Origin: Natronolimnobius baerhuensis
GTDB lineage: Archaea; Halobacteriota; Halobacteria; Halobacteriales; Natrialbaceae
Direction: 5' to 3'
Assembly (NCBI RefSeq): GCF_002177135.1
Contig: NZ_MWPH01000006.1
Location: 5,955 to 69,954, forward strand
DNA: 64,000 nucleotides
Positions within the stretch are counted from its first letter, which is position 1. The number at the start of each line of letters is the position of its first letter. Shown here in pieces: positions 16,319 through 41,750 of the stretch. Made by a program: the position numbers and the translations under genes. Under the pieces are notes generated by a model, which saw only the letters and a program-made list of their open reading frames with translations, searched no databases and was not told where the DNA came from.

Positions 16319-16346
16319 CATCCCACCAGAGACAGTGTGCACGTAC

Positions 16347-22979: not shown

Positions 22980-23269
22980 AGTGATATCACCTATTCAGAT
23001 TTGCTACATATAATACTTTACTTTGTGATAAGTTATTAGATGGCTACATCGAGAGAACAGCAAATCGACTGCGAGACTGACTTCCCATAGGTGTGTTCCG
23101 TGCGGGGACTGTTACGACCTGTCCACCAGGTATTGCCGGAAAATGATTCTCTGCAAACCGATGGAGCATCTATCATTTATACTTATATTAATGGAAGCTC
23201 ATATTAAAGAACGGAAATAAGCCCCCCAGAGCCCTGTAATGCTGACTTTGCCGATTATCATAATTTCAT

Positions 23270-23282
23270 CGAAAGTATAAAT
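23270..23282 (+). promoter_or_regulatory. BRE/TATA promoter 'cgaaagtataaat' for kinase 3 (leaderless)
   Basis: 28 bp upstream of ATG 23310. Context 'tcatcgaaagtataaa' is conserved with 16301-16318. Confidence 0.55.
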
Positions 23283-23309
23283 AGATCCGTACTTCCAATT
23301 ATCCTGTAT

Positions 23310-26300
23310 ATGGGGATCGACGAACGCGATCAACACTGGTTCACTGCCGATATCACGCACTTTGTGTATAGTATCTTTTCGCCAATTACAGTTCCATTTG
23401 TCCTCCTAGCGGCGATGATTTGGCTACTCATTGTTGGCATTCCAGGTTTTATGCTCGAGTGGATTATCAAGCTTATTTTCACGGAGAACGGACTCGTTCA
23501 CTCACTCTATATGATCGTTTTCCTGTTTGTGATAGTCGTCGTTTTTGTCGGCTATTTCGCATTCGCTCTCATCGAATATCTCACCGCAGAGCCGATGCCG
23601 GACCAAATGCCAACGAGCACGGCCGGCTATTGCTGGTGGATTGGTCTTCCTGTTCTCGCTGCCGTCGCCGTGCTTGCCGGCCTCGCCGCCGGTGTCGAGA
23701 TTGAGTCGACAAGACAGTTCCTCGTCCTAGTCCCGCTATTCGTGTTCGGTTCAGTGCTCCTGATGACGCGAACGCTAAGTGTCGTTCGACGGTCGAAATC
23801 CTCGGCCGACGTCACCGTCACCGTCACTACCGTCGTCATCGCCTACATACTCGTCGCTGGCGTCCTCGAGGCGGTCGGCCTGTTCGTGGTTGCCCCGTTC
23901 CTCTTCGAACCAATAAGCGAGTGGCCCGGCATGGCATCGGTGTATGTTCCGCTGTTGCTTGTCCTCCTCGTCATAATCGAACCGCTCGACGCACTCGGAC
24001 TGCTGGATTCATCCTCGACTGACGGCTCCACTGATCCCGGTGAAATGGCGGCGAATGTCCCAGTTTTGTTCGACGCTGAAACGGGAGAAGGCCTGTTTAT
24101 GTCGCTAGCGCTCACGTTTGTCGTCCTTCCCGCTCTCGTCGCAGTCGTCGAATCATCGTGGCATGGATATCAAATCACATCCGAGATACGTGCCCGGAAA
24201 AACAGGCTCAAGGCGCGGAAACGTAAATTCGAAGAGACTTCTAGGGAGTTCAACTCCGCCATCGAAGATGCCGAAGCTGCACTCGAGGACGACCGTTACG
24301 ACGAAGTCGAACGGCTGGTCATCGACGTTGCACAGGCCAAGCTGGATCGGTGCCAGCGACTGCACAAGAACTACGATATTCCGGAGTCCGTTCCTGCCAG
24401 TGCTCGAATCGAGAATTTGAAGATTAAACTGAAGCGACACGAGGCCAAACAAGAACTCGAAGACCTGATCCAACGACAAGAGGAACTCATCGAGGAGTAC
24501 CGCCAGAACCGCGATGCAGCCAACTACGAGAAGGCGAAAGGATCGCTGCGTCGAGCAAAGTCGGTCGCAAGCGACTGTACAAACACAGCGCGGGAACACG
24601 GCCTCAAGTACTCGCTACCAATGTCGAGCAATGACATTGACGCCGCGATAGCTACCCTCGAGGCGACAGAGACCGAAGCCGAACTCGAAGACATCGTCGC
24701 CGAATACGAGTCCCATCTGTCGACGTTCGACGACGCGATTTGGAGCGGTGACCTGGATCGCTGCGATACGCTGTTTGAGACGCTACGTCAGAAACGCTCG
24801 CAGATCGAGCAACTCGAGCACAAACTAGGGACCAATGCCGAGGCGCTCTCGAGTGCTGATCGGGATCTCGCTGACCGGATTCACCACGCAGCCCAGCAGA
24901 CGATTAGGACGAAATTCGATGTGGGTGTTGGGACCGGTGAGTGCGACGGCGCGTTTGCCTGGCCCGAGGCAAGAGCACGCTACCTGCTCGCTTCGGGGAG
25001 ACAAGCTGCTGAAAATGGCGAGTATCGAGACGCAATCTCGCGAGCAGAGACCGTCGCCACCGACCTCTTACAGCACCTCGACGACGGGTCCCCCAGCGAA
25101 CGGAATCGAGACTCACTGGGAGACCTGATAGGGACCGCCCGAGATCACAAGGGAGAGTGGGAACGACAGTTGATCGTCCGACAGATCAACGACGCGGTCG
25201 ACAGAGAACCGGACGAGTACGAGGAGGCGAGCAAAATCCTCACAAGTGCACTGTCGCGGATCGATCAGACGAATGCGTTTAGCGAGGAAGAGCGAGCGAT
25301 CATCGAGCAGGATACACGCAAAGCGTATGTTACCGTTCGCTCGGACGGGGCATCTGCGCTCGTCGATAACGGTAACGAGCGGCTCGAAGTTGGCGACGAA
25401 TCGTCTGCAGCCACCCATTATGAGGACGCGATGACAACTCTTGGGGACCTCGGCGATACAGTCGCAGAGTGGAACGACGTTAACAATGAACCCATTGATG
25501 AACAGTACAACGCAGTCGAACAGAAATACGTTGAAACACAGACGACACTGCTTGAGGAACGTATCCGGCTGGGAATCGACCAGTTCGACGCCGACGAGTA
25601 TGACGCTGCTCTCGAGACGTTCCGAAACGTGACGAACGAGACCGAGACTGTCCGCGAGCGTGTCGAGACCGAATATGATCGTCTATTGTACCTCCAAGAC
25701 CTCACCGAAGCGAACGCGAAGACGACCCAGCGCACCTCGCTGGGTATTGGGACCGGATCGAAATCCCTACAAGAACCCGAACAGGATGCGGCTGGCACAA
25801 CCCACCGGGAGCATATGGACTCGAGCATCAACTCCACCTCACAGGCCGCCGGCGCACCCGGAAACGACATATTTGACTCGATTGAGGCATCGCTTCCCGA
25901 CGAGATAGACTACATGCAACTCGAGAAAGAGACGGTGCTTGGGTCGGGTGGAAACGCGACCGTCCACAAAGCCAGGCTGGATAGCGATGAAACCCAGTAT
26001 ATCGCCCTCAAAGAGCCCCAGGTTCCTGAAGGAACAGTCGACAAGGCACTGTTCGACCGATTCAGAGACGAAGCGGAAAACTGGAAGCAAGTCGACGATC
26101 ACCCTCATATCGTCAGCGTCCTCGATCACGGTATGCACACGCTGCCCTGGATCGCAATGGAGTATCTCGACGGCGGTCATCTCGGTGACCGCGTCGGACA
26201 ACTCGAGACTGAGCACGCGTTGTGGACCGCACTAGCAGTCACCAGAGCGATCAAACATGCTCATCGACCTGGCATTACCCACCTCGACATCAAACCTGAA

Positions 26301-26741
26301 AACATCCTCTTCAAATCGGTCGATGGATACTGGGACATTCCCAAAGTGGCCGACTGGGGGCTAGCGAATCATTTGCTCGACCGTCCGGATGCCGTCGAAG
26401 GACTGTCACCGCAGTACGCTGCTCCGGAACAGTTTGATCCCGATATCTTTGGCGACACCGATCTCGAGACGGATATCTATCAACTCGGAGTCGTCTTCTA
26501 CGAACTGTTTACCGGAACGCTGCCGTACGAGGGTGACCGGTACAAGGTGTTGCAGAACGAACCGGAGAGAACGCCAACGCCTCCGAGTGAACTCGCAGAC
26601 GTACCACCAGAACTCGACGACGTGCTTCTGAAAGCACTGGCCCCGGAGAAAGCGGACAGGTACGAGAACGTCGCCTTCCTCGAGCAGGAATTAGAAGTGC
26701 TCTTTGAATCGCTGGTCAACGACGCGAGTCCCCAGCGTTGA
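23310..26741 (+). CDS. membrane-anchored Hanks-type Ser/Thr protein kinase, paralog 3 (recent duplicate of paralog 1)
   Basis: Same architecture as paralog 1. The C-terminal ~800 aa are ~90% identical to 16347-19802. The kinase domain is near-identical. Confidence 0.85.
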   Translation: MGIDERDQHWFTADITHFVYSIFSPITVPFVLLAAMIWLLIVGIPGFMLEWIIKLIFTENGLVHSLYMIVFLFVIVVVFVGYFAFALIEYLTAEPMPDQMPTSTAGYCWWIGLPVLAAVAVLAGLAAGVEIESTRQFLVLVPLFVFGSVLLMTRTLSVVRRSKSSADVTVTVTTVVIAYILVAGVLEAVGLFVVAPFLFEPISEWPGMASVYVPLLLVLLVIIEPLDALGLLDSSSTDGSTDPGEMAANVPVLFDAETGEGLFMSLALTFVVLPALVAVVESSWHGYQITSEIRARKNRLKARKRKFEETSREFNSAIEDAEAALEDDRYDEVERLVIDVAQAKLDRCQRLHKNYDIPESVPASARIENLKIKLKRHEAKQELEDLIQRQEELIEEYRQNRDAANYEKAKGSLRRAKSVASDCTNTAREHGLKYSLPMSSNDIDAAIATLEATETEAELEDIVAEYESHLSTFDDAIWSGDLDRCDTLFETLRQKRSQIEQLEHKLGTNAEALSSADRDLADRIHHAAQQTIRTKFDVGVGTGECDGAFAWPEARARYLLASGRQAAENGEYRDAISRAETVATDLLQHLDDGSPSERNRDSLGDLIGTARDHKGEWERQLIVRQINDAVDREPDEYEEASKILTSALSRIDQTNAFSEEERAIIEQDTRKAYVTVRSDGASALVDNGNERLEVGDESSAATHYEDAMTTLGDLGDTVAEWNDVNNEPIDEQYNAVEQKYVETQTTLLEERIRLGIDQFDADEYDAALETFRNVTNETETVRERVETEYDRLLYLQDLTEANAKTTQRTSLGIGTGSKSLQEPEQDAAGTTHREHMDSSINSTSQAAGAPGNDIFDSIEASLPDEIDYMQLEKETVLGSGGNATVHKARLDSDETQYIALKEPQVPEGTVDKALFDRFRDEAENWKQVDDHPHIVSVLDHGMHTLPWIAMEYLDGGHLGDRVGQLETEHALWTALAVTRAIKHAHRPGITHLDIKPENILFKSVDGYWDIPKVADWGLANHLLDRPDAVEGLSPQYAAPEQFDPDIFGDTDLETDIYQLGVVFYELFTGTLPYEGDRYKVLQNEPERTPTPPSELADVPPELDDVLLKALAPEKADRYENVAFLEQELEVLFESLVNDASPQR

Positions 26742-26833
26742 GGGGTCTTTCGCCGGTGGGTCTCGAACCGACTCGTCCAGACCGTCCCGACGTAGTCCTT
26801 GGAGACGGTTCACCTGCTGAATTGACGGTGGTG

Positions 26834-28372
26834 CTACGGTTCAATCGTTCCGAACAAACCAACCGCTTTGCGTCGCCGATAGAGATATAATAGGAACGTC
26901 AATGCATAGGCGATAAGGCCGATGTAATAGAGGTAGCGCCGCGGCGACCACTCGATCCGCTCACTCTGTTGAAACAGTACCATCTCCTTGTTCCAAGCGT
27001 AGAAGAATCCGATGATAGAACCAAGTATGATCACTGCACCGCCGTCAGTGCCGCTTGCGCCGCCAAGGATGAAGGCCGGGAACGACCCGTATAGTATATG
27101 ATGCGTATGAAGCGTACCGAAATCGGTCTCGATTACTGCTGACGAAACGCGTTGTGCTGGCGTGGGTTCGGTTGGTGATTGTTGCGAGGGCGATTCGGAC
27201 GTAGAACGCGAGTTCGGTTGTTCAACACCGGTGTCAGCTCCCGTATTGGGACGGGTTGTATCACGCCTGTCTGTTTCTTTGTCATTATTCGAAACCGATG
27301 GATCACCAGGATTCGTTATCGTCGTTCCACTGTTCGTGCCGGCCTGATCGGTTGATGAAACTGTACCGCGCTGAGTTGAAGTGGACGCTGATGTCGAGTC
27401 GCTGGTGTTCTGTGAAGGTGTACTTCGAGGAGCTGCCATCGATTCGGCCGGGTCGTTGCCGAGTGCCAACTCGAGCAAACGGTTGAGTTCGCGTTTGAAG
27501 TCAAGAATTGACTCGTACCGATCAGATTTGTCCTTTGTGAGTGCGCGCATGAGCGCGCTGTCGGTTCCCTCGGGGAGACCATCAACTCGTTCACTGGGTG
27601 GTATCGGTTCCGACTCGAGGACGTCATGCATGACGGTCGCGGCAGATCCAGTAAACGGTGGTTCGCCGACGAGCGCGGCGTACACAACCGCACCAGTTGC
27701 ATAGATATCTGTGTAGTCGTCGGTATGCCCGTAGGTTTCGTCATCGAACTGTTCGGGGGCGGCATAGTGTGGCGACAGTCCTTCGATGCTCTGAGAGTGT
27801 TCAAGCAGCATCTTCGCAAGTCCCCAATCAGCGACTTTTGGAACATCCCACGAACCCGGCTCCGTCTCTGCGAACAAGACGTTTTCCGGTTTGAGATCGA
27901 GATGGGCAATACCTCGCCTGTGAGCGTGACGGACCGCACGAGCGATGCAGACGCCGATCCACAGCGCTTCTGCGGGCTCGAGATCGCCGAGTCGCGCATC
28001 GAGACTGCCGCCATCCATGTATTCCAGTGCAATCCATGGGAGCGGCTGACTCTCATAACCGAGCACGCTGACGATGTGATCGTGGTCGTCGAGTTTCTCC
28101 CACGTCTCCGCCTCTGCAGTGAACTGTGAAAGGGATTCGACGTCTAGTGTCCCCTGCATTCGTGGCTGTTTCAGCGCACAGATGTCAGGCCCCTCACCCT
28201 TGAATTGAACCTTGGTGACATCGGCGTTCCCCCCTGATCCAATCGCCTCGAGTTCTTCGAAATCTGTGAAGTCAGCGTCGATCCGGACAGGATCGGTATC
28301 AGCAACGTCCGGACGTAAATCCTTGTGTACCCCCGAAGACATATCTCTGTTCTCGAATACTGAGAGAACCAT
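26834..28372 (-). CDS. Hanks-type Ser/Thr protein kinase with inverted architecture (N-terminal kinase, S/T/P-rich linker, C-terminal TM helices)
   Basis: 'IGSGGNADVTKV', 'ALKQP', 'HRRGIAHLDLKPENVLF', 'DWGLAKMLL', 'SPHYAAPEQF'. Low-complexity STP/Q linker. Two or three C-terminal hydrophobic helices. Confidence 0.85.
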   Translation of the reverse strand: MVLSVFENRDMSSGVHKDLRPDVADTDPVRIDADFTDFEELEAIGSGGNADVTKVQFKGEGPDICALKQPRMQGTLDVESLSQFTAEAETWEKLDDHDHIVSVLGYESQPLPWIALEYMDGGSLDARLGDLEPAEALWIGVCIARAVRHAHRRGIAHLDLKPENVLFAETEPGSWDVPKVADWGLAKMLLEHSQSIEGLSPHYAAPEQFDDETYGHTDDYTDIYATGAVVYAALVGEPPFTGSAATVMHDVLESEPIPPSERVDGLPEGTDSALMRALTKDKSDRYESILDFKRELNRLLELALGNDPAESMAAPRSTPSQNTSDSTSASTSTQRGTVSSTDQAGTNSGTTITNPGDPSVSNNDKETDRRDTTRPNTGADTGVEQPNSRSTSESPSQQSPTEPTPAQRVSSAVIETDFGTLHTHHILYGSFPAFILGGASGTDGGAVIILGSIIGFFYAWNKEMVLFQQSERIEWSPRRYLYYIGLIAYALTFLLYLYRRRKAVGLFGTIEP

Positions 28373-28540: not shown

Positions 28541-29257
28541 TCAGAGTGAACTAAGGAGGACACTCACATTGTCACTTCCGCCGTTTTCGTTCGCTCGTTC
28601 AACGAGCAGGTCAGCGCCCTTTGCGAGTGTCGGCGCTTCGTGGATGAGTTCGTGGATTGTTTCGTCGGCGACTTCCTCGGTCAACCCATCCGAACAGAGC
28701 AATAGCGTGTCTGCTCCAGAAACTTCGTAAAAATCTGGCTCAACCGTCTCATCTGTTCCAAGTGCTTGTGAGATTACGTTTCGCTGTGGATGCTCCGCAG
28801 CTTCTTCCGACGTGAGTTTCCCTTGATCGACCAACTCTTGGACTAACGACTGATCAGTGGTTACCTGCTCGATTGAACTCTCGGTGAGGGTGTATGCCCG
28901 ACTGTCGCCAACGTTCGCGAGGAGTACCTCACCGCTCCGAACGAGTGCAACGACCACTGTTGTTCCCATTCGTGAACGCTCGTTACACTGGTCGTGGATC
29001 GCTCGATTGGCGTCCACAATTGCTGATTCCAACAGATCCTTCCACTCGGTCCGTGGTGGTATCGAATCGCCACCAAGCGTCTCTTCGAGCGTGTCGATTG
29101 CCAGTTGACTCGCGACGTCGCCAGCGGCGTGGCCGCCCATCCCGTCAGCGACCGCGAGGAGTTTCGTATTATCTGTCAGCTGCGTTCCAAACAGGGTATC
29201 CTCGTTGTGTTCGCGTTGACGGCCGACGTCAGTTCGGGTTACAAAAGTCTCGTTCAT
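28541..29257 (-). CDS. PP2C-family (PPM) Ser/Thr protein phosphatase
   Basis: 'GRQREHNEDTLF', 'LLAVADGMGGHAAGDVASQLAI', 'GDSRAY', 'LLLCSDGLT' and the C-terminal 'GGSDNVSVL' are canonical PPM motifs. Confidence 0.85.
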   Translation of the reverse strand: MNETFVTRTDVGRQREHNEDTLFGTQLTDNTKLLAVADGMGGHAAGDVASQLAIDTLEETLGGDSIPPRTEWKDLLESAIVDANRAIHDQCNERSRMGTTVVVALVRSGEVLLANVGDSRAYTLTESSIEQVTTDQSLVQELVDQGKLTSEEAAEHPQRNVISQALGTDETVEPDFYEVSGADTLLLCSDGLTEEVADETIHELIHEAPTLAKGADLLVERANENGGSDNVSVLLSSL

Positions 29258-29269: not shown

Positions 29270-30085
29270 TTAATTAGAGTTTGCTGGGTCACAGTGCGGA
29301 CAGGCATCCTCATAGGCCAGATCGTGAACCTGACAGAACTGTTTCGTGGCGGTTTCGGACGGTGCTGTATCGCCACCCGGTTCCGATGGCTGGTTCGAAC
29401 CGAGGTCGTACCCGCAGTTAGGACAGTACAATGCAGTGGCGCTGATCTCGCTCCCACATTTGATGCAAAACTGTGTATCGCTCGTGGTCTCTTCGGACCC
29501 CGGTTGCGGTTCGGGAGTAGACGTCTGATTGTTGACCGAGATCGTATCCGACGGGTTCGACTCGCTTCCGATGCTCGAGCGATTGAAGACATTATCGTCG
29601 CCGACCTCGGCCGGTTCTTCGCCACCGATGTCCGTACGGTTAAAGACGTTGTCGTCACCGACGGTAGTACTGTTATCCTCACCCACCACGATTTTCCCGT
29701 CCCCGGTGTTGACAAATTTCGCATCTCGCTCGGTCGTCAACTGTAACGTAGTCTGGTAGCCAATCGAGATCGTAGCGTCGCTCGAGACCGTCTCAATACG
29801 TCCGTTGGCGACCTCTCGCTCCATACCTTTCGAAGTGACGGTGATGCCGTTAGAGTTCCCGTTGTTGTGAATCTCGATCCGTTCCTCGCGTGGCTTGAAC
29901 GCGACTGGCGCGGTATCTCCCTTTTTACGAGAGACAGTAATGTCAGCGACACCCAATGGCACGACTTTACCGTCTACTTCGGCAACGACTTGTTCGCCTC
30001 GTTCAGGGTCGCGATACACCTCTGTCCATGATTCGACAGAAATTTTCCCCGTATCCGACGAATCGATTGTTACGTACCCCCTCAT
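29270..30085 (-). CDS. zinc-ribbon protein with degenerate FHA-like N-terminal domain
   Basis: C-terminal 'FCIKCGSEISATALYCPNCG' and 'FCQVHD...CPHCD' are CxxC pairs. The N-terminal beta-rich region ('ITVSRKKGD...IEIHNNGNSNGITVTS') loosely matches the FHA 'SR.HA...S.NGT.VNG' pattern. Internal repeat 'VGDDNVFNR(T/S)(D/S)IG' x2. Confidence 0.55.
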   Translation of the reverse strand: MRGYVTIDSSDTGKISVESWTEVYRDPERGEQVVAEVDGKVVPLGVADITVSRKKGDTAPVAFKPREERIEIHNNGNSNGITVTSKGMEREVANGRIETVSSDATISIGYQTTLQLTTERDAKFVNTGDGKIVVGEDNSTTVGDDNVFNRTDIGGEEPAEVGDDNVFNRSSIGSESNPSDTISVNNQTSTPEPQPGSEETTSDTQFCIKCGSEISATALYCPNCGYDLGSNQPSEPGGDTAPSETATKQFCQVHDLAYEDACPHCDPANSN

Positions 30086-30317: not shown

Positions 30318-31112
30318 TCACCCACTCCGTTCGTGCAGTCGCCGGATGCGCGTTGCAAGTTCACGCACGCGTTTCTGGCGATCCTCAGCAAGGGAGTTGT
30401 CCGCGGGTACAATTTCGAGTTGCTCGACGACCCCATCGACCTCCTCATAGAGTTCATCGTAGGCGGCATCAGAGACTGGATTAGCCGCCAGAAAGTCGCG
30501 CAGTTCTGTTGCTCGCTGGTGGCAGGCTTCCGGTGATTCTCCGGCAGCGGCCTCGAGATGCTCGGCTAGCGAGACTCCGAGGTAGCCAACGGCGTTTCCA
30601 ACGTCGTCGGTCTCCGTTTCATCAGTGCCCGAACCAGTACCTGCACTACCAGCACTATTTTCGATAGTAACATCCTGTAATCGCTGACGTGCACGTCGTC
30701 GCTCGTCTTCGTACGTGGCATTTCCAGCGATTTCAGCGAGCGTCTGGCCGATACGCTCTTGCTCGGTTGCCTTGATCTCAGGATACAATCCCCGAAGCGT
30801 ATCGATGGCGTCGAGTCGTTCGCTCGTATTAGTTCCGTCCTCGGCAAGCGTACAGAAGAGCGGAACAACGACCGACGCAGCAACGGTTGGATCCCGATCG
30901 AAAAGCGACTGCAGCGTCTTGCGTGCGAGTTCCCGCTCAGCGCGTCCCGTCGAGTCGGTCACTGTCGTTCGCAGCGTCTCGAGGATGCGGCGTCGCTCGC
31001 GCTCGTCAGCCGTCGGATACAGCGTCGCGAGCGATTCGATTGCCTCCTGTCGGTCCTGCGAATACGGTGATTCGAGGGCCGTCTCTCGGTGGGTATCGAT
31101 TGCTTCCTGCAT
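30318..31112 (-). CDS. HEAT/PBS-lyase-like repeat protein
   Basis: Repeating helix-pair units of ~30 aa ('AIESLATLYP', 'ILETLRTTVTD', 'AIDTLRGLYPE'). ATGA overlap with the upstream gene at 31112. Confidence 0.6.
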   Translation of the reverse strand: MQEAIDTHRETALESPYSQDRQEAIESLATLYPTADERERRRILETLRTTVTDSTGRAERELARKTLQSLFDRDPTVAASVVVPLFCTLAEDGTNTSERLDAIDTLRGLYPEIKATEQERIGQTLAEIAGNATYEDERRRARQRLQDVTIENSAGSAGTGSGTDETETDDVGNAVGYLGVSLAEHLEAAAGESPEACHQRATELRDFLAANPVSDAAYDELYEEVDGVVEQLEIVPADNSLAEDRQKRVRELATRIRRLHERSG

Positions 31113-32890
31113 CAGATGTTCTCCCCGCAGTTCGTACAGAAATCGTTCTCGGCCGGTACCGCCGTCTCACAGCTGGGACAGACGACATCCGTCTCGGAGG
31201 TGGTGCCGCTGCCGCTATTGCTACCACCGCCGTCACCACCCTGGACAATGGTGGTATCGCCGCCGCTGCTGCCACCTGCGTCCGGAATAATAACATTATC
31301 TGACGTGTCCTCTGCAGCCGCGCGGCCAGTCTCGCCCATGTTATCCATGGCCGACTCAGTCGTCTCCTGCATCCGATCCATCGAGTCGCCCATCATCTCT
31401 TTCATCTCCTCACGGAATTCCTTCTGGTCATCGACGCGCTGGCGTTCTTTCTCGGCACTGTTTGCCTCCTGGCGGGCCTTCGCGAGTTCGTCGCTATCTT
31501 GGGCACCCAGTGCTTCGAGTTGGGCGGGCGAGAGATTCCCGGCCTTTTCCATCTCAGCTAACTCCGCAACTGACTCATCAACGCCATCCATGCTCGCGAG
31601 CGTACCAAGGTCGACGTCGTCGCGGGCTTCCAGTTGCTCCTTCTCGACTTCGACCTCGTGGCGCTCCTTTTCCATCTCGAGGTCTTGCTCGCGTTGCTCG
31701 CGGTCGAGTTTCTGTTGGTCTTTCTTCGACTTGACGTCGATCAGATCTTCGATTTCGGTGATGTCCTGCTCGTGTTCAAGGTCGCGGCGGTCGACTTCGT
31801 TCTCCTTGCGCGTGGTCTTGGCGTGTTCTTCGTGTTCGACTTGCTCGCGCTCGGCTGTATGTCGGTGCCGGCGCTGCATGTCGTCTTTCTCGTGGTCGTA
31901 CTCGAGATCCTGGGTCTCAATCTGGTGGTCAGCGGATTGTTTCGTGGTTTCGCGCCGGACCCGCTGTTTCTCGTCGTGGACCGTATCGCTGGTGTCACGC
32001 TCGCGTTCGCGACGGTCGAGTTCCGCGCGGCGGTCCTCAAGGTCTTCCGTCTCGGCACGGATCTCAACGTCTTTCTTCCCCTCGCGAATCTCGTCTCGGT
32101 CATCCTCATACTCAAACGACCGTAGGTCGACCAGCGCCAGTCCGTTGCGCTCGAAAATCGCCTGACACTGCTGAGCGACATCCGATTGCAGCGTTGCCGT
32201 CAGTTCGCGATTTCCGTACAATTCCTCATGCTCGTATGAAGAAAGCGTCGCCGCCAACTCCCCCCGAACGGCGTCGCCGAGCAACCGCTCAAGCGTATCA
32301 GTTGTAACCGCATCCCGATCCGTGACCATGCTGGTGAAGAACTGCTCGGTATCCTCGAGAGTGAAGACGAGTTCGACGGTCACATCGACGGGATACTCCG
32401 ACGCCGTCCGGACGCCCTCAATCGGTAGGGTCAAGACCGTGTTTCCATCTGGAACTAACACGACGGATCGATCTTGGCCAGTGCGGAAATCGACGATCTT
32501 CTGCCCGAGTGAGTCAAGCGTGTGGTTCCCTGGCCCGATCTCTTCGGTCACCGAACCGTCCTCGAGCAGGAGTGCCCGCGTTCCCTCTTCGATGCTGATC
32601 TCCTCTTTCTGACGCAGTCGGTTTAGGAAACCGCCAGATTGTAGCGCCGCACCGTCTACTCGTCGAGCCAGTTCCGTTGGCCGCAACTGGATTGGACCTG
32701 ACTCAGAATCGTTTGTCGATTTGTTATCGGACCGTGCGTCGAGGGACTCACCACAGCTCGGACAGAACGACCCACTTGCCGAAACGCTGTCACCGCAACT
32801 CGGGCAACTCTCGCTGACCGAACAGCCACAGTCGCGGCAGAAATTTGCCGCATCGGGGAGTTCGGTCCCACAGTCGGGACAGATCGTCAT
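31112..32890 (-). CDS. flotillin-like protein: N-terminal Zn-ribbons, SPFH/band-7 domain, ~270-aa charged coiled coil, C-terminal Zn-ribbon
   Basis: 'CPDCG...CRDCG...CPSCG...CPSCG' N-terminal. 'VVLVPDGNTVLTLPIEGVRTASEYPVDVTVELVF...TDTLERLLGDAVRGELAATL...LALVDLRSFEYED' matches the SPFH core. E/R/D/K-rich heptads follow. C-terminal 'CPSCE...CTNCG'. Confidence 0.7.
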   Translation of the reverse strand: MTICPDCGTELPDAANFCRDCGCSVSESCPSCGDSVSASGSFCPSCGESLDARSDNKSTNDSESGPIQLRPTELARRVDGAALQSGGFLNRLRQKEEISIEEGTRALLLEDGSVTEEIGPGNHTLDSLGQKIVDFRTGQDRSVVLVPDGNTVLTLPIEGVRTASEYPVDVTVELVFTLEDTEQFFTSMVTDRDAVTTDTLERLLGDAVRGELAATLSSYEHEELYGNRELTATLQSDVAQQCQAIFERNGLALVDLRSFEYEDDRDEIREGKKDVEIRAETEDLEDRRAELDRRERERDTSDTVHDEKQRVRRETTKQSADHQIETQDLEYDHEKDDMQRRHRHTAEREQVEHEEHAKTTRKENEVDRRDLEHEQDITEIEDLIDVKSKKDQQKLDREQREQDLEMEKERHEVEVEKEQLEARDDVDLGTLASMDGVDESVAELAEMEKAGNLSPAQLEALGAQDSDELAKARQEANSAEKERQRVDDQKEFREEMKEMMGDSMDRMQETTESAMDNMGETGRAAAEDTSDNVIIPDAGGSSGGDTTIVQGGDGGGSNSGSGTTSETDVVCPSCETAVPAENDFCTNCGENI

Positions 32891-33104: not shown

Positions 33105-34307
33105 TTATTCATCCCAATCAGCGAGACTCGAGTCAACTGACTCGACTGCCGCTGTAAGGTGGTGCTGGGTTACTGGCTGGATCTCCGACTCATCGCGGGC
33201 CTCCTTGAGCGCGTCTCTAGCGGCCGTCGTCGCGACGAGCTCGAGGTCGCTCGCGGCGTAGCCCTCGGTTAGGCCTACGATTTCGTCCCAGTCAATCGTC
33301 TCAGTGAGGACCGGCCGATCACGGAGATGAACGCGCAAGATGGCTTCGCGTGCGGTCTCGTCCGGTGGCGGTACCTCAATTCGCTCGTCGAACCGGCCAG
33401 AGCGCTTGATAGCGTCATCGACAGCCTCCAGCAGATTCGTCGCCGCAAAAACAACGACGTCTTCGCCCTGGACATCTGAGAGTTCGGTCAGTAATTGATT
33501 GACCATCTGCTGTTGGCTTTGGGTCGTCTGTGCGCCGCCAGTTCGCTGACCAGCAATCGCATCGATTTCGTCGATGAAAACCAAACATGGCTGGTTCTCG
33601 CGGGCAACGGTGAACAACTCGGCGACGTTGTCTGCCGCTTCTCCGACTAAGGAACTTGACAGGTCTGACGGCGTCACCTCAATGAAATTGTAGCCGAGTT
33701 TACCAGCAAGTGCCTGTGTAATGTAGGTCTTGCCCGTCCCCGGCGGCCCGTACAACAACACGCCGTTGACGACGCCGAGTCCGTATTCCTCGTAGAGGTC
33801 GGGCCGCTCGAGTGGGTCGACAATGGTGTCGATTACGGTTTGTTTCAAGTCAGTCATCCCGCCGACATCATCAAAATCCAACTCAGGTGGATCCTTCAGA
33901 TATGCCTTCGCGTCGACCTCTTTGTTCTCATCGCCGTTGCCGGTCCCACCTGGTGGGCTGGCGTTTGCAGTTCCACCTGGTTCAGGTCCGCCCGATTGAG
34001 TTCCGGACCGGTCATCAGAGAACTCCGCGGTAGTCTCACTCTCCCCATCAACGACACTCACCTCACCCGATGCAATTGCCTCGAGTGTGTCGGCAGCCTC
34101 ATCGAGGTTCTTTGCAAGTGATCGCCGTTTCTCAGCGAGTTTCTCGGCCGACTCAAGGTCAGCGATCTGATCGACAATCTCGGCAGTTTTACGGTAGTGT
34201 TCGGCAGCCTTGGCGGGTTCTTTCCGTTCACGGAATTTCTCTGCGAGTTGGCGGTGGCGCTCGTAGTCGTCCTCAAGGATTTCTTTGTGTGCCCCGTCTT
34301 CTAACAT
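33105..34307 (-). CDS. Vps4/CdvC-like AAA+ ATPase (MIT-like N-terminal helical domain, disordered linker, single classical AAA domain)
   Basis: Walker A 'GPPGTGKT'. Walker B 'LVFIDEIDAI'. SRH 'ATNLLEAVDDAIKRSGRFDERIEVPPPD'. The N-terminal 85 aa form a three-helix pattern with an A/Y/E periodicity reminiscent of MIT. Confidence 0.8.
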   Translation of the reverse strand: MLEDGAHKEILEDDYERHRQLAEKFRERKEPAKAAEHYRKTAEIVDQIADLESAEKLAEKRRSLAKNLDEAADTLEAIASGEVSVVDGESETTAEFSDDRSGTQSGGPEPGGTANASPPGGTGNGDENKEVDAKAYLKDPPELDFDDVGGMTDLKQTVIDTIVDPLERPDLYEEYGLGVVNGVLLYGPPGTGKTYITQALAGKLGYNFIEVTPSDLSSSLVGEAADNVAELFTVARENQPCLVFIDEIDAIAGQRTGGAQTTQSQQQMVNQLLTELSDVQGEDVVVFAATNLLEAVDDAIKRSGRFDERIEVPPPDETAREAILRVHLRDRPVLTETIDWDEIVGLTEGYAASDLELVATTAARDALKEARDESEIQPVTQHHLTAAVESVDSSLADWDE

Positions 34308-34402: not shown

Positions 34403-35083
34403 TTAGATGTCGAACTCCTGTTCGTCGATTTCGACTTCCTCGAGGTCGAGGTCATCCTCGATTGCAGCGTCATCGCTGGTGTCAGCGGAGACTTCGGCTT
34501 CCATCTCGATGTCGACTTGCTCTTCTGAGATTTCGGAGGCAGCCATCTCTTGCATCAACTGCTCTTCTTCGCTGACGTCCATTGCGATGTCGTCTTCCAT
34601 GATGGGGATATCCAGTGCCTCCTGAATCTCTTCCATGTCCTCCATCTCGATGCCGAACGCAGCCATCCGCTCCATGATCTCGCTTTGGATCTCTTGAGCA
34701 TCAGCGTCATCCATCGCATTATCGAGCGCGATGTCGTCCTCGTTTTGTACTTCCATGATCTCGCGCATTCCCTGAATAGAAAGGATAGTACCGAGTTTGA
34801 CGCTGTTTGCGCGATACTTCTTTTTCTTGATCGCATACTTTTTCTTCTCAAATTTGGCTTTCTGTGCGTACTTTTTACGCTTGAGATCACTCACCTCCGC
34901 ACCTTCTTTGAGGAGTTTCTTGTATGTCCGACTATGTTGATCCATCTCATTCTCGAGTTTTTTCAGCTTGTGCTCGAGTTTCGTGATGTCTTTTCGGATG
35001 TCGGTATGACTGTAGACATCCTCGTCGAGGAGCGTCTGTCCTGTGCCGCCGAATCGGTCTTGAACCCAATTTCGAAGTTCCAT
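34403..35083 (-). CDS. Snf7/ESCRT-III-like (or PspA/Vipp1 superfamily) coiled-coil protein
   Basis: Basic N-terminal helical hairpin ('LKRKKYAQKAKFEKKKYAIKKKKY' resembles CHMP4 'LKRKKRYEKQLAQ'). Strongly acidic C-terminal half ('DIALDNAMDDADAQEIQSEIMERM' resembles CHMP4 'DIDKVDELMQDIADQQELAEEIS'). Adjacent to the Vps4-like ATPase. Confidence 0.55.
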   Translation of the reverse strand: MELRNWVQDRFGGTGQTLLDEDVYSHTDIRKDITKLEHKLKKLENEMDQHSRTYKKLLKEGAEVSDLKRKKYAQKAKFEKKKYAIKKKKYRANSVKLGTILSIQGMREIMEVQNEDDIALDNAMDDADAQEIQSEIMERMAAFGIEMEDMEEIQEALDIPIMEDDIAMDVSEEEQLMQEMAASEISEEQVDIEMEAEVSADTSDDAAIEDDLDLEEVEIDEQEFDI

Positions 35084-36267: not shown

Positions 36268-38268
36268 ATGAACTGTGCACGACGATTTCAGGATCTTGTT
36301 CGGGACCGAGACGTTGTTCTCGAGGAAGATCTGGCAGCGCTGAAACGCCAAAGTGAACGAGGACGTATCGAGCGGTACAATACGATCAAATCCGATGAGG
36401 CGACGTTCCAGTCGGCATTTACTGGCGACTGCCGAGAGTTTCTGACGCAGTCCGAGCGCAACCGCGCCCGCGGAGAATTCCGCCTTGCACGGTTGCTCAT
36501 TGCAGCCAGTTTCTACGACGATGATGAGAACCAATTCCCGCCGTCGATGGCCGACGACTTCGCGAACGCTGCCCTCGAGGCAGTCGTGGACTTTGAACGG
36601 TTCAAGCGCTTCGACGCGCTCTCGACGAACCAGATCGAAGAGCACATCCGGCGGATGGACGGCGAAGTGTACGAACTTGTTGTCGAGTACACATCGACGC
36701 AGCTAGCGACTGTCGAAGAGTTGCTCGAAGAGCCCGATGTCCAGCAGGACCTGATCGAGCGACTGCTTACACGCTACGAAGAGCGTCGCGAGAAAATTCG
36801 GCAAGGCTTTTTCACCTACGTCGAGACTCACGGTCTCGAGCACATGGTCGCCGAAATCGAGGCGGCCGTCGAGGCCGTCGCCAACGCCTCTGACACACGA
36901 GAAACGATCCACGAGCAACGCCAGGATGGCCCAGGGGACACATCATTGCGTCTCGACGGCAACCTGCGGCGTCGCACGCGAAAACTGGAGTCAGAATTGG
37001 GAGCTGCCGAAGCCGGTCTCGACGGTCAAAGCGACATCGACCACCTCCGTAAGCAGGTTGCTAACCTCACCGACACGCAGCAAACGGCGGTGACAGAACT
37101 CGAGGACCGCATCGACAAGGCGAGTGACCTCAAAGATCGCATCGACGCAGAGATTGAACGCCTCCAACAGACGCACGGTGATGTCGCCGACGCTAATCGC
37201 AAGGAGGTCGCCGACGCGACAGCCGACCTCATCGAGACCGAACTCGAGAATCTCGAAGCCGAGCGTGATGATCTTCTGACGGAGATTGATCACCTCAAGC
37301 GCGAGCGTGAGTTGCTTGAAGCGACTCGTAGTCGTCTGGACGAACGCCAAGGAACACTTACAGAGCCAATCGATAGTGATGTCGAAGCCGCGCTTGGACC
37401 CAACGTGGAGACCGGACTGGACGGCGACGATGTTGTTACCGCATCGGTTGCGTGTCTGCAGGAACTGGACTACCTCGGTCGCTTCGATATCTCGATGCGG
37501 GATGCCACGAGCATCACAACTGACGCGTCCGGCACCGAGTTTGAGGTTCCTGATAATTACTGGGACGACCGGAGCGAGCGGCGCAACGAACGGACACGAC
37601 TGGCAGATCTGCTCGAGGATGGCGACCCAACCGCCGTCGAGCAGTACCCCGTCAACCGGAGCGCGCGCTACGAGATCACCAACTCTCAGTACTTCGGTTT
37701 CGCCCGCGAAACAGAGATGATACTCGAAGCGCGAGTCTGTGCACATCTCATGGCGTACGCGACCACCGGGTTCGACGCGGCGCCGGCAGATCTCGACGAT
37801 GTGCTGTCCGTCCTCAACGACGTGATTTACGAAGCAGAGCAGCGGGACATCACGTATCTGCTCGGAATTGCATCCCCGACTGGCTGGACTGAGCGCGTTA
37901 TTGAACAACTGCAGGGAGAGGGGCAAAACGTGACCCGAACCCGAATGAGTCAAAACGTCGGTCTCTGTCTCGTCGATCTCCAAGACGGCTCCGTACTGTA
38001 CGACAAATCAGATTCCGTTGTCGCGGAGAACGCTCACCTCTTCGAACCACCACTTGAGAGCGAGCGTGTCACAAACTGTGTCTCAACCCTCCGCACCGAG
38101 TACGTTGACGATCTCGGCTGTGAGACAGTACTGCTGTGTGACATCGTTGAACACCACGACTATGACCCACACATTGTCGACCGAGCGTTTGACAAGCTAG
38201 AGCGTGATGGAACCGGCCACCAATTCTACGTCGAGGAGCTCGGATTGGCGTTAGCCGTCGGAACCTAG
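36268..38268 (+). CDS. hypothetical large acidic coiled-coil protein with globular C-terminal domain
   Basis: 666 aa. Central ~250-aa E/R/D-rich heptad region ('LEAERDDLLTEIDHLKRERELLEATRSRLDERQ'). No enzymatic motifs recognised. Confidence 0.55.
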   Translation: MNCARRFQDLVRDRDVVLEEDLAALKRQSERGRIERYNTIKSDEATFQSAFTGDCREFLTQSERNRARGEFRLARLLIAASFYDDDENQFPPSMADDFANAALEAVVDFERFKRFDALSTNQIEEHIRRMDGEVYELVVEYTSTQLATVEELLEEPDVQQDLIERLLTRYEERREKIRQGFFTYVETHGLEHMVAEIEAAVEAVANASDTRETIHEQRQDGPGDTSLRLDGNLRRRTRKLESELGAAEAGLDGQSDIDHLRKQVANLTDTQQTAVTELEDRIDKASDLKDRIDAEIERLQQTHGDVADANRKEVADATADLIETELENLEAERDDLLTEIDHLKRERELLEATRSRLDERQGTLTEPIDSDVEAALGPNVETGLDGDDVVTASVACLQELDYLGRFDISMRDATSITTDASGTEFEVPDNYWDDRSERRNERTRLADLLEDGDPTAVEQYPVNRSARYEITNSQYFGFARETEMILEARVCAHLMAYATTGFDAAPADLDDVLSVLNDVIYEAEQRDITYLLGIASPTGWTERVIEQLQGEGQNVTRTRMSQNVGLCLVDLQDGSVLYDKSDSVVAENAHLFEPPLESERVTNCVSTLRTEYVDDLGCETVLLCDIVEHHDYDPHIVDRAFDKLERDGTGHQFYVEELGLALAVGT

Positions 38269-38573
38269 CAGTAGTTCTGAATTTGAGCGCTATATTTCAG
38301 TCGCATAGACTAACTCGTCAGCGGAGACCACGAAATACACTCGGGAGATCAGCACCGAGCAAAAGATGCGGACGGTCACCGAAGCTGCTGCTGAGTATAT
38401 GGAACTCGCGATACCGCACATCGACTTTGGTCGTGATCCGGACGCACCCAACTACCAATATCCTCCAGAGTCGTTTTACCGCCTCTTAGCTCACGAAACG
38501 AGGTAGTTCAGTTGGAAGCAGCCACACCGTCAAGGAACGGTTGTATACATGAAGGTGGAACCACCTTCTGATT

Positions 38574-39635
38574 TTATGGCCCTTCCTCCCAGACAAAACT
38601 CATCATTTCTACGTCCGCTTTGTCAAAAAATTCTGTTTGCAATTTTTCAGCATTTTCAGCCAACCTTTCCATTTCCTCCCCTTCCTCTAAGAACCGATAT
38701 GAAACATGGTCTACTAACCAATTATATAGTTCATCTATCGCATTATCATAGTCTACGATTGCTTCACTAATGATAACGTTATTCTCCCAACTATCTACGT
38801 ATCCTTTTGCTCTTGTTGACCATTCATTGCTCGATAGCACATACTCTTTATCTAATGCAAAAGAGTACCGTTCCTCCTCAGACATATGTATAGTGAAATC
38901 TATCGGCTCATGGTGAACAATGTAATTTCGAAGACTAGTGAAAAACGGTTCATACAAATCAAGGTTACATTTTTTCACTTTTACATCATACAACTCGCTT
39001 ATCAGCGGATCCGATGAACAGTACTCATCTAACTCAGAAACTATCCTCTCAGTGTAGTTTTCTGCATTTTTCATAGATCCAATATAATTGGACAATAGGC
39101 GCATGAACTCTTTTGAGGATTCATTGACTTGCTTCCAATATATTTCCTCAGTTGTCTCACATCTGGCAATCAAGTGAATGAGTTCAGTATAGTTTCTGTG
39201 ACAAATATGGTTTATCGCATTCATCAATGTCAGGATGCAATTTCCAATATAATAGCCAGGAGAACTCTCCCATTCTCGTGTTGCTTCCATTGCTGCGTGA
39301 AATACTTCTTTTTCCTCTTCAGAATCAATACTGTCAGAATATGTTTTTAGTAGACCAAGTGACTCTGGAGGCATGATAGTCACTGTTAACATCTCAATTA
39401 CAAAATATCTTTCAGCCCTCTCTGCCTTTTCCCCTACCACCCCTTGGGGCCACACGTCGGCAAAACACGTTTCTCGAATATGCACACGAACTCCTGTTTT
39501 CTGTGTGCAGATCCAGATACTGCCTCTCGAGTCAATCTGAGGGCCTTCCATTGGGGACTTCAGATAAAATAGACCTCGAGAGAACAATGCAAACCACGAG
39601 AAGAGCCAGTCTGTGATCACAACCCCGCCAAACAA
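38574..39635 (-). CDS. hypothetical protein (AT-rich island; W/Y/C-rich, no TM)
   Basis: 353-aa ORF in a ~38% GC segment. Compositionally foreign. Confidence 0.45.
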   Translation of the reverse strand: MFGGVVITDWLFSWFALFSRGLFYLKSPMEGPQIDSRGSIWICTQKTGVRVHIRETCFADVWPQGVVGEKAERAERYFVIEMLTVTIMPPESLGLLKTYSDSIDSEEEKEVFHAAMEATREWESSPGYYIGNCILTLMNAINHICHRNYTELIHLIARCETTEEIYWKQVNESSKEFMRLLSNYIGSMKNAENYTERIVSELDEYCSSDPLISELYDVKVKKCNLDLYEPFFTSLRNYIVHHEPIDFTIHMSEEERYSFALDKEYVLSSNEWSTRAKGYVDSWENNVIISEAIVDYDNAIDELYNWLVDHVSYRFLEEGEEMERLAENAEKLQTEFFDKADVEMMSFVWEEGP

Positions 39636-39674
39636 GTCTGCTACACCAACTCTATTTACTTAACCAACAAAATT

Positions 39675-40034
39675 ATGCTCTCGAGAATTGTGTTGGTTAA
39701 CAGGGAGACCATGTCCGACGAACCACCGGAACCGCCAGCAGAACTCCCAAACGATTTGGTCGACACAATTGCTGACTACTCAACCGATCAACTTCGTCAC
39801 ATAGCTCGCTACGGCGAAGCACTTGCTGAATACAAGGAACGTGAGGAACGGCTTGCTGAGAAATCAGATGACGATGACATCGAAAAATCCGCTGCCGATC
39901 TACCAGACGACGTCCCGGCGAAAGCGACACCGACGATCAAGGAAATCAACGACAATCGGTACTACTACTGGCAGTGGAGAGATGGGGACCAGATTAAGTC
40001 CAAATACAAAGGGCCAGTCAATCCTGACGAGTAG
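39675..40034 (+). CDS. hypothetical acidic protein (a partial copy of it lies at 42060-42170)
   Basis: 119 aa. 'LRHIARYGEALAEYKEREERLAEK' is duplicated in degraded form inside the ORB cluster. Confidence 0.45.
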   Translation: MLSRIVLVNRETMSDEPPEPPAELPNDLVDTIADYSTDQLRHIARYGEALAEYKEREERLAEKSDDDDIEKSAADLPDDVPAKATPTIKEINDNRYYYWQWRDGDQIKSKYKGPVNPDE

Positions 40035-41732: not shown

Positions 41733-41750
41733 AGATGATGATGATGATGA
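41733..41750. repeat. (GAT)6 microsatellite
   Basis: 'gatgatgatgatgatgat' read directly. Confidence 0.9.

Follow-up and report, generated by a model that had tools for sequence, protein, structure and literature searches.

Of what machinery, if any, is a haloarchaeal SPFH protein part when it carries zinc ribbons at both ends and is encoded beside an AAA ATPase, membrane kinases and a protein phosphatase? This question is raised by a locus of Natronolimnobius baerhuensis, here analysed in a 64,000-nucleotide stretch of DNA (the window). The reading that we favour, at a probability of roughly 0.55, is that the protein is an anchor-less SPFH scaffold and a dedicated part of an ESCRT-like system of the Halo_FHA type, with which haloarchaea would remodel membranes under phospho-regulation.

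The target ORF (ATG start; Table 1) was confirmed as a real, conserved gene and is not a chance ORF, because about 54 homologues match it at 42–79% identity with full-length coverage. It runs directly into the downstream 264-aa gene at a TGATG junction with a 1-nt overlap at 31112, so that the translational coupling to a HEAT-repeat gene given in the preliminary description stands as tight coupling but not as ATGA; ORF coordinates at two orthologous loci (L003 and L006) imply a 4-nt overlap. Searched by profile against the PDB, the partner matched a designed helical repeat (E = 6e-7) and the HEAT protein PP2A-A (E = 6e-6), in agreement with a helical-repeat protein; the narrower name HEAT-like is weakly supported by the PP2A-A match. 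A long antisense ORF over the target (31089..32165, plus strand) is the usual high-GC shadow.

An SPFH/Band-7 core followed by a highly charged coiled coil of about 270 aa had been proposed from the sequence, and both elements were recovered. Pfam PF01145 (Band_7/SPFH) matched aa 99–263 (E = 3.2e-9, 37.5 bits versus a gathering cut-off of 23.6), and the AF2 model, with pLDDT 80–90 over the core, had only SPFH-family proteins as its top 43 PDB matches in Foldseek (best E = 7.6e-9), with prohibitin, HflK/C, flotillin and stomatin among them; a search of PDB sequences with the single protein turned up nothing above noise (Pizza designs, E ≥ 0.2). The coiled-coil claim holds because residues 265–528 form long predicted helices (265–354, 376–424 and 467–528, AF2 DSSP) containing 32.6% D+E and 17.8% K+R. 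The motif at aa 528–552 is near-invariant among haloarchaeal homologues and is kept in distant relatives as a hydrophobic pattern, P(T/A)V(V/I)..G..P(V/I)V(I/V), from which Thr is absent; these hydrophobic strands without Thr indicate a structural role, and in flotillin a beta-barrel is formed at the equivalent position (PMC11260169). Hydropathy revealed neither a TM segment (maximum over 19 residues, 1.06) nor a hairpin membrane anchor in the target, and the profile check suggested earlier, here run with Pfam, was positive for PF01145 and negative for the PF15975 flotillin domain (E ≤ 0.1); PF13421 (Band_7_1) did not match the target in Pfam either. Since it has no PF15975 match and no membrane anchor, we reject membership of the flotillin family, and ‘flotillin-like’ is a description of the layout only, namely SPFH followed by charged helices.

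The termini were described in advance as having four CxxC pairs and one CxxC pair, of which the N-terminal count is right (C4, C18, C29 and C43, making two ribbons; Pfam DZR, aa 4–47, E = 1.8e-14) and the C-terminal count is two (C571 and C585, making one ribbon; Pfam Zn_ribbon_15, aa 565–589). Conservation of these pairs in homologues, named beforehand as a point on which the description could fail, was found for 12 of 12 Cys (each at least 90% conserved in an alignment of 39 sequences). What did not survive is the statement that a flotillin capped by zinc ribbons is unique or unusual: of 133 full-length representatives of 50%-identity clusters that were examined, at least 82 have the DZR-SPFH-...-Znr architecture, many of these in Planctomycetota, and for ESCRT-III-type proteins SPFH partners with zinc ribbons have been published before (YdjI, PMC11237479; Meth_adaptin, PMC10936438).

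Table 1 Features of the window, in order of position, with the domains of the target listed beneath its gene.
Feature	Position	Strand	Evidence or remark
Large membrane Ser/Thr kinase	16335-19802	+	Pkinase match; TM-like segments
Large membrane Ser/Thr kinase	19941-22979	-	Pkinase match; TM-like segments
1143-aa polytopic membrane protein, coiled coil and Ser/Thr kinase domain	23310..26741	+	Pkinase E 6.5e-30; ~8 TM-like segments
512-aa Ser/Thr kinase, hydrophobic C-terminus	26834..28372	-	Pkinase E 1e-31
PP2C Ser/Thr phosphatase	28541..29257	-	NCBIfam Stp1_PP2C 257.5 bits, cut-off 230
271-aa protein: FHA-like N-terminus (by eye), beta-rich DNVFNR repeats, C-terminal zinc ribbon(s)	29270..30085	-	Zn_Ribbon_1 E 1e-7
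264-aa helical-repeat (HEAT-like) partner	30318..31112	-	Start overlaps target stop by 1 nt; PDB profile
Target gene, 592-aa DZR-SPFH-coiled coil-Znr, no TM segment	31112..32890	-	ORF; Pfam; 54 homologues; AF2 and Foldseek SPFH fold; maximum KD19 hydropathy 1.06
N-terminal double zinc ribbon, aa 1-50 (CPDC, CRDC, CPSC, CPSC)	32741..32890	-	Pfam DZR; 8 Cys at least 90% conserved
SPFH/Band-7 domain, aa 97-263	32102..32602	-	PF01145 37.5 bits; pLDDT 80-90; Foldseek E 7.6e-9
Charged helical ‘wall/cap’ region, aa 265-528	31307..32098	-	AF2 DSSP; 50% charged residues
Motif DTSDNVII ... GDTTIVQGG, aa 528-552, proposed cap beta-strand(s)	31235..31309	-	Conservation
C-terminal zinc ribbon, aa 568-592 (CPSC ... 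CTNC)	31115..31189	-	Pfam Zn_ribbon_15; four invariant Cys
400-aa classical AAA ATPase, MIT-like N-terminus (Vps4/CdvC-like)	33105..34307	-	PF00004 132 bits
226-aa ESCRT-III-like protein: basic helical hairpin, acidic tail	34403..35083	-	
Divergent pair, 216 aa and 666 aa	35603..38268	+	Beside cluster in L001, L004-L007

The genes around the target would fit membrane remodelling under phospho-control. The N-terminus of the AAA ATPase gave profile matches to archaeal Vps4 MIT domains (2v6y, E = 0.008; 2w2u, E = 0.02); no Vps4_C match was found in the protein, and its NCBIfam scores for PAN (217 bits) and CdvC (155 bits, cut-off 650) lie far under the cut-offs. Upstream of it, the 226-aa gene fits ESCRT-III in position, size, charge pattern and helical-hairpin model, and ESCRT-III proteins dominate the top Foldseek matches of its product, the best E being only 0.2; Snf7 was matched neither in Pfam nor in PDB sequences. 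FHA-like motifs (TVSR, NxNG and DxxIxIG) are invariant in four orthologues of the 271-aa protein, which is conserved in loci L001, L002 and L004 and has a weak PDB profile match to the FHA protein 3gqs (E = 0.4); Pfam FHA matched none of the four, and hhalign against three FHA proteins aligned only the zinc ribbons. Altogether the window encodes four Pkinase proteins and one Stp1-type PP2C.

This set of genes recurs. The family is patchy, with nine target loci among 185,579 species genomes, and in all seven haloarchaeal loci of at least 17 kb the target is syntenic with the ESCRT-III-like protein, the AAA ATPase (7/7), the HEAT-like and zinc-ribbon proteins, PP2C and membrane kinases. The HEAT-like partner accompanies the target in nine of nine loci and is adjacent to it in seven, gene order is kept across families of Halobacteria, and variant loci contain extra proteins with C-terminal zinc ribbons. 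The earlier suggestion of a membrane-remodelling module is in keeping with a conserved cluster in which an ESCRT-III-like gene and an MIT-like AAA ATPase occur together (PMC10936438).

Among the closest known systems is Halo_FHA, an archaeal ESCRT system comprising Vps4 (arCOG01307), ESCRT-III (arCOG07402), an FHA-CdvA-like protein (arCOG13166), arCOG08177/09748, STK and PP2C (Makarova 2024, PMC10936438). What appears to be the same gene set and order surrounds the AAA ATPase in the window, with Ser/Thr kinases and PP2C (Stp1, 257 bits versus 230) present, and the 216-aa and 666-aa pair are probably the counterparts of arCOG08177 and arCOG09748, matched by order and size alone (Table S2, PMC10936438). 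Three species named in the Halo_FHA lists of that paper, Halapricum desulfuricans, Haloplanus salinarum and Halorhabdus amylolytica, also carry the target locus. The reference locus of Halomicrobium mukohataei, however, has neither an SPFH gene nor the 264-aa HEAT-like gene, and the putative FHA protein of the window has zinc ribbons and beta-repeats but no recognisable CdvA-like tail. In its main text and the part of its supplement considered, PMC10936438 names no SPFH component for Halo_FHA and gives an SPFH-coiled-coil-Znr protein only for the clade Meth_adaptin.

That Meth_adaptin protein (Methanosalsum zhilinae WP_013898576.1), for which a cage or ‘lid’ role was proposed by the authors (PMC10936438), likewise has an SPFH domain, a coiled coil and a zinc ribbon and is the product of an archaeal Vps4/ESCRT-III locus, but its SPFH domain begins at residue 1, leaving no N-terminal double ribbon, and its partners are adaptin-appendage, GOLD and ProX proteins where those of the target are kinase, PP2C and HEAT-like proteins. 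Bacillus subtilis YdjI, a TM-less SPFH protein on which, in experiments, the recruitment of PspA to the membrane through YdjG/H depended (PMC8581546), has a C-terminal zinc ribbon, and its operon partner YdjG has two (PMC11237479, where YdjI is named YdjL). Both YdjI, in the pspA-ydjGHI operon, and the target are TM-less SPFH proteins with a C-terminal ribbon encoded beside a gene of the ESCRT-III superfamily, or in the case of the target an ESCRT-III-like one. Compared by description only, YdjI is far shorter and lacks the N-terminal double ribbon and the helical region of about 260 aa; it is partnered with PspA, and neither a Vps4-like ATPase nor a kinase or phosphatase accompanies the pair, and the PF13421 match of the YdjI type is missing from the target. 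With the cages of flotillin, HflK/C and prohibitin, the target shares the SPFH fold and the chain order of SPFH, wall helix, cap helix, short beta-strand and CTD (PMC11260169), whereas it has no membrane anchor, lipidation surface or Flot domain match, bears zinc ribbons at both termini and is only 12–20% identical.

By analogy with these systems, we infer that the target would form an SPFH ring or cage and in this way organise ESCRT-III on the membrane, comparable to YdjI with PspA. It would oligomerise as other SPFH proteins do, the SPFH domains forming a wide rim, the charged helices the wall, and the conserved ‘MDRMQE..AMDNMG’ helix and hydrophobic strands the cap, an order of wall helix, cap helix, beta-strand and CTD that is known for flotillin (PMC11260169). 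In this arrangement the apex would carry the C-terminal ribbons, and the double ribbons of the N-terminus would lie at the rim. The assembly may be kept at the membrane by partner proteins, a role for which the polytopic kinases are candidates; there it would seed or confine the growth of polymers of the 226-aa ESCRT-III-like protein, which would then be remodelled by the AAA ATPase. Several proteins of these loci carry zinc ribbons, which may serve as docking modules between components, and kinase and PP2C would switch the assembly on and off.

We caution that the same molecular mechanism could operate in a stress or antiviral ‘conflict’ system and not in a vesicle or sorting machine. Once the kinases sensed an insult, the membrane would be repaired, or deliberately perturbed, by the SPFH cage together with the ESCRT-III-like protein and the AAA ATPase. 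Bacterial relatives do lie amid caspase (Peptidase_C14), CHAT, Peptidase_U49 (Lit-like), FGE-sulfatase sensor fusions and many kinases, the family has the patchy distribution described above, PspA/YdjI is itself a stress system (PMC8581546), and the AAA ATPase of the window resembles the anti-phage ATPases IetA/IteA at the level of general AAA similarity. We nevertheless regard this reading as rather doubtful: the haloarchaeal cluster yielded neither a protease nor a nuclease effector, PADLOC had no match for the SPFH, HEAT-like, ESCRT-III-like and Znr proteins, and the kinase and IetA matches reflect generic family similarity. The present module is not described in the Aravind-laboratory paper on conflict systems (PMC7159879). 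Improbable, too, is a soluble vault-like cage enclosing cytoplasmic cargo independently of membranes. The lack of a TM segment or hairpin and a significant Foldseek match to major vault protein (E = 2e-5) speak for it, but membrane-bound SPFH proteins score better in the same search, the neighbours include the ESCRT-III-like protein and polytopic membrane kinases, and YdjI is recruited to the membrane although it is TM-less (PMC8581546).

Least credible is a housekeeping microdomain organiser of the stomatin/flotillin type that merely adjoins the other genes; the generic SPFH domain would suit it, but synteny across families of Halobacteria, a sporadic rather than universal distribution, and the lack of an NfeD partner, a membrane anchor or a Flot domain make it very hard to sustain. 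A separate question is whether the Thr-rich tail (DTSDNVI / GDTTIVQGG) is mainly a kinase substrate and an FHA-docking site recruiting the neighbouring protein, as its invariance in haloarchaeal homologues and the kinases and PP2C of the cluster might suggest. This is unlikely, since distant relatives keep the hydrophobic strand pattern and not the Thr, and the FHA domain of the neighbour is only putative.

Beyond Halobacteria, distant relatives in Planctomycetota adjoin Snf7-like genes, AAA genes bearing Vps4_C, kinases and FHA; some distant relatives show faint PF13421 matches, and tblastn against a plasmid collection returned bacterial DZR matches only. Relatives with the DZR-SPFH pairing number about 2,700. 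We tentatively suggest, as a possibility short of even odds, that the DZR-SPFH-coiled coil-Znr family may mark one ancient module, found in Halobacteria, Planctomycetota and other bacteria, that contains an SPFH cage, one or more ESCRT-III-like proteins, one or more Vps4-like AAA ATPases and Ser/Thr-kinase/FHA/PP2C control, its bacterial version being wired to caspase, CHAT or Lit-type proteases.

Under the favoured reading, the Halo_FHA archaeal ESCRT system would gain an SPFH-Znr component together with its HEAT-like partner. Membranes are organised both by SPFH cages and by ESCRT-III polymers, two ancient machineries whose functional link has only lately begun to be documented (YdjI–PspA; flotillin–ESCRT-0/I). 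In this locus and its bacterial counterparts, a compact set of genes couples an anchor-less SPFH scaffold with an ESCRT-III-like protein, a Vps4-like ATPase and switching by phosphorylation, and how such a cage recruits ESCRT-III, or confines it, could be tested there directly. The loci of Planctomycetota also matter for the existence of Snf7/Vps4-type machinery in bacteria, where the current view holds Vps4-like ATPases to be essentially absent from ESCRT-III systems (PMC7619361). If the family does mark one ancient module, zinc ribbons would be its common docking code, and Planctomycetota would, against that view, possess a genuine ESCRT machinery of the Snf7/Vps4 type that is organised by an SPFH protein.

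Pfam matches and the positions of the CxxC motifs bear out the preliminary description of an intact reading frame in which an SPFH core lies between zinc ribbons; the score of the core clears the Pfam gathering cut-off of 23.6 bits. The four N-terminal CxxC motifs that had been described (residues 4, 18, 29 and 43) make up two ribbons, and the C-terminus carries two pairs (571 and 585, forming one ribbon) rather than the single pair claimed. The highly charged helical stretch was likewise recovered, with long helices predicted across residues 265-528, half of which are charged. The protein is nevertheless flotillin-like in layout only, and membership of the flotillin family was rejected, because Pfam gave no match to the flotillin-specific domain. 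No membrane-spanning segment was found in it (top 19-residue hydropathy 1.06). The proposed ATGA coupling to the HEAT-repeat gene was not seen: the junction reads TGATG, with one base (31112) common to both genes, and ORF coordinates in two orthologous loci imply a 4-nt overlap at the same junction. The original observation is confirmed, and its interpretation is partly supported.

Coordinates of features in the window and in related loci (those of L-numbered loci are internal to each locus)
Feature	Position	Strand	Remarks
SPFH-Znr gene	31112-32890	-	Intact ORF, 592 aa
Double zinc ribbon (DZR)	residues 4-47		Pfam, E 1.8e-14
SPFH/Band_7 domain	residues 99-263		Pfam, E 3.2e-9, 37.5 bits
C-terminal zinc ribbon (Znr)	residues 565-589		Pfam
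1346-aa protein	7513-11553	-	GLUG motifs, Big_1, invasin D3 Ig-like domains
Ser/Thr kinase genes	16335-28372		Four in a row; three >1000 aa
271-aa protein	29270-30085	-	Zinc ribbon
264-aa HEAT-like protein	30318-31112	-	Weak Adaptin_N match, E 0.029, aa 4-114
Low-GC stretch	38000-46000		GC 0.45-0.48 vs about 0.57 elsewhere
353-aa ORF	38574-39635		No family match
Orc1/Cdc6 gene	42436-43770		
L004, inserted genes	10910-15249		ORFs of 544, 332 (coiled coil), 387 and 185 aa (C-terminal zinc ribbon)
L005, inserted genes	12017-15964		ORFs similar in size to those of L004
L005, 292-aa protein	7890-8768		C-terminal ribbon
L013, relative	994-13151		DZR-SPFH-Znr, tubulin (CetZ/FtsZ-like) and 1047-aa PQQ/beta-propeller genes
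L015, Planctomycetota	3505-13029		
L016, Planctomycetota	2015-10043		
L017, Planctomycetota	3102-21443		
L018, Planctomycetota	146-21320		

About 54 relatives emerged when 5.8 billion proteins were searched, almost all of them full-length and 42-79% identical, and those with names were all Halobacteria (Haloarculaceae, Halosimplex, Halapricum, Salarchaeum and Haloplanus). The conservation of Cys pairs on which the preliminary description had staked its claim holds among these homologues: across 39 aligned sequences, all four C-terminal cysteines were invariant and the eight N-terminal ones at least 90% conserved. The gene turned up at only nine loci, all haloarchaeal, across 185,579 species-representative genomes. 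The 226-aa neighbour has a 100% match in a named NCBI protein of Natronolimnobius baerhuensis; for the 592-aa protein, the protein collection yielded no full-length entry but only a 326-aa fragment (P0048, 100% identical), and the protein may be differently annotated in, or missing from, the public record.

Each of the seven loci of sufficient length for a judgement has the gene within a single conserved cluster, in the order 226-aa protein, 400-aa AAA ATPase, SPFH-Znr, 264-aa helical-repeat protein, zinc-ribbon protein, PP2C phosphatase and Ser/Thr kinase(s), flanked by a divergent pair encoding 216-aa and 666-aa proteins. The 226-aa protein is acidic and helical. The ATPase is a classical AAA protein for which NCBIfam models show no preference for CdvC (PAN 217 bits, CdvC 155 bits), and its N-terminal 90 residues weakly match archaeal Vps4 MIT domains (2v6y, E 0.008; 2w2u, E 0.02). 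In 9/9 loci the SPFH gene occurs together with the 264-aa gene, which abuts it in seven and whose product has an N-terminal half similar to HEAT repeats (PP2A-A, E 6e-6; designed repeat, E 6e-7). The PP2C is a Stp1-type phosphatase that exceeds the curated cut-off, and four kinases flank the cluster, three of them large and with membrane regions. The 271-aa protein keeps invariant FHA-like motifs; neither Pfam nor hhalign matched an FHA domain in it, and a PDB profile match to an FHA protein reached E 0.4.

Several further features of these neighbours were recorded. The HEAT-like protein has a separately conserved C-terminal helical domain with an invariant YL..SL.EHL..A motif. The 271-aa protein carries tandem GDDNVFNR(T/S)(D/S)IG repeats, weak gp5 beta-helix and bactofilin-type matches and a second Cys/His cluster (FCQVH...CPHC) beyond its zinc ribbon; its DNV(I/F) motif echoes a DNVII strand in the SPFH tail. 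In the kinases of more than 1000 aa, a long coiled coil or linker joins the C-terminal kinase domain to an N-terminal membrane region, which is polytopic in two of them and consists of one hydrophobic stretch in the third; two window kinases (1155 and 1143 aa) look like close paralogues, and one kinase carries a bacterial PH domain. In the orthologous loci L004 and L005, three to four uncharacterised genes are inserted between the SPFH and HEAT-like genes; these, and the 292-aa protein of L005, may be extra components of the system. The low-GC stretch, which contains the 353-aa ORF and the Orc1/Cdc6 gene, could be an island or integrated element at the edge of the cluster, and the domains of the 1346-aa protein are bacterial-type and surface-adhesin-like, here in a haloarchaeon.

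The AlphaFold2 model (mean pLDDT 68.6; SPFH core 80-90) begins with an SPFH alpha/beta domain and continues with three helices (265-354, 376-424 and 467-528), after which come a disordered Gly/Ser stretch and the last ribbon. In Foldseek against the PDB, the best 43 matches were all SPFH proteins, including prohibitin (E 7.6e-9), HflK/C, flotillin, erlin, stomatin, QmcA and major vault protein. Between helices and ribbon lies a segment that is near-invariant in the 39-sequence alignment, MDRMQETTESAMDNMGETG.AAAEDTSDNVIV...GDTTIVQGG. Our first idea, that this Thr-rich tail is a kinase or FHA target, was weakened when 38 diverse relatives were aligned, since Thr is not conserved outside haloarchaea; the relatives instead share a helical segment (ADRLERM..AL.QMG), either one or a pair of short hydrophobic strands (P[TA]V[VI]..G...P[VI]V[IV]), a linker of Gly residues and the ribbon. 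Because this helix-strand-ribbon pattern matches the order of the flotillin cage (SPFH1/2, wall helix, cap helix, beta-strand and CTD, with one strand per subunit forming a parallel barrel; PMC11260169), the motif is by analogy more likely a cap strand of an oligomeric assembly; phosphorylation of the tail in haloarchaea is possible.

The Halo_FHA type of archaeal ESCRT system, as given in the text and part of the supplementary tables of Makarova et al. 2024 (PMC10936438), comprises Vps4 (arCOG01307), ESCRT-III (arCOG07402), an FHA-CdvA-like protein (arCOG13166), arCOG08177/09748, kinases and PP2C. Its component tables include Halapricum desulfuricans, Haloplanus salinarum and Halorhabdus amylolytica, species in which we find SPFH homologues, whereas the reference locus (Halomicrobium mukohataei) is without an SPFH gene. 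That text describes an SPFH-coiled coil-zinc ribbon protein, with a suggested cage or 'lid' role, for the Meth_adaptin clade only, and, in that text and the part of the tables covered, Halo_FHA appears to be given neither an SPFH nor a small HEAT-like component. The best experimental precedent is YdjI of Bacillus subtilis, an SPFH protein without a TM segment that depends on the membrane proteins YdjG/H and is itself required for the ESCRT-III homologue PspA to reach the membrane (PMC8581546); YdjI carries one C-terminal ZnR domain and YdjG two (PMC11237479). The haloarchaeal protein is best filed as an SPFH-ZnR partner of ESCRT-III-type systems, added to Halo_FHA together with its HEAT-like partner.

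It is a real SPFH scaffold with conserved bracketing zinc ribbons in an ESCRT-like, phospho-regulated cluster; its domain architecture, conservation, lack of an anchor and synteny are shown by the data. We infer that it would form a ring or cage with the N-terminal double ribbons at the rim and the C-terminal ribbons at the apex, held at the membrane by partner membrane proteins, where it would organise an ESCRT-III-like polymer remodelled by the MIT-AAA ATPase under kinase/PP2C control. Since several other proteins of these loci also bear ribbons (the 271-aa protein, the extra proteins of L004 and L005, and kinases, an FGE-sulfatase and a U49 protease in Planctomycetota), we speculate that they share a docking role.

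A vault-like cage acting independently of membranes is possible, given that the protein is without a TM segment and that major vault protein is among its structural matches, but its membrane-linked neighbours speak against it. Conserved synteny and a patchy distribution contradict an unrelated housekeeping SPFH protein. A stress or antiviral role, which would be compatible with the same molecular mechanism, is favoured by the caspase, CHAT and Lit-like proteases in which the context of bacterial relatives is rich, though we rate it as the less likely reading; the haloarchaeal cluster is without such effectors, and PADLOC registered there only generic kinase, AAA and PP2C similarity.

Those bacterial relatives emerged from a filter-free HMMER search of residues 1-300 against 1.84 billion cluster representatives, which gave 2,677 matches at E<=1e-3 (210 at E<=1e-10), most of them collinear from residue ~4 to ~295. 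The top 149 include 133 full-length representatives, of which 129 carry two or more CxxC motifs at the N-terminus and 82 possess both terminal ribbons; the bracketed SPFH core is not the unique architecture it had been taken for. Named distant members belong to Planctomycetota (Planctomycetes bacterium SM23_32, Pirellulales, Sedimentisphaerales), with one Thermodesulfobacteriota bacterium. At L013, a 30%-identical gene adjoins tubulin and beta-propeller genes, recalling the Halo_adaptin ESCRT locus, whose published description, in the text covered, includes no SPFH component.

Neighbourhoods of the distant relatives repeat the haloarchaeal theme: an ECF sigma factor with a kinase, a ~215-aa protein followed by an AAA ATPase, DZR-SPFH-Znr, Znr-FGE-sulfatase, Znr-Peptidase_U49, FHA-kinase, and caspase or CHAT. 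The ~215-aa Planctomycete protein is collinear with the haloarchaeal 226-aa family (hhalign E 4e-5, probability 70%). A ~197-aa protein, also followed by an AAA ATPase, matches Pfam Snf7 under the gathering cut-off (E 6e-5 to 0.025), and one ATPase paired with it has Vps4_C above cut-off; CdvC is among the top three NCBIfam models for the Planctomycete ATPases, all far under cut-off. L015-L018 combine the DZR-SPFH-Znr family with one or two units of a small helical protein and a classical AAA ATPase, alongside an ECF sigma factor, several Ser/Thr kinases, FHA, Znr-FGE-sulfatase, Znr-Peptidase_U49 and caspase/CHAT genes. A recent review regards Vps4-like ATPases as apparently missing from the ESCRT-III systems of bacteria (PMC7619361); sporadic transfers in which snf7 is displaced are noted elsewhere (PMC11237479). 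These loci may represent a bacterial Snf7/Vps4-type system of which we found no description, and a Planctomycetota module joining the same SPFH family to Snf7-like and Vps4-like genes is the most interesting spin-off of the analysis.
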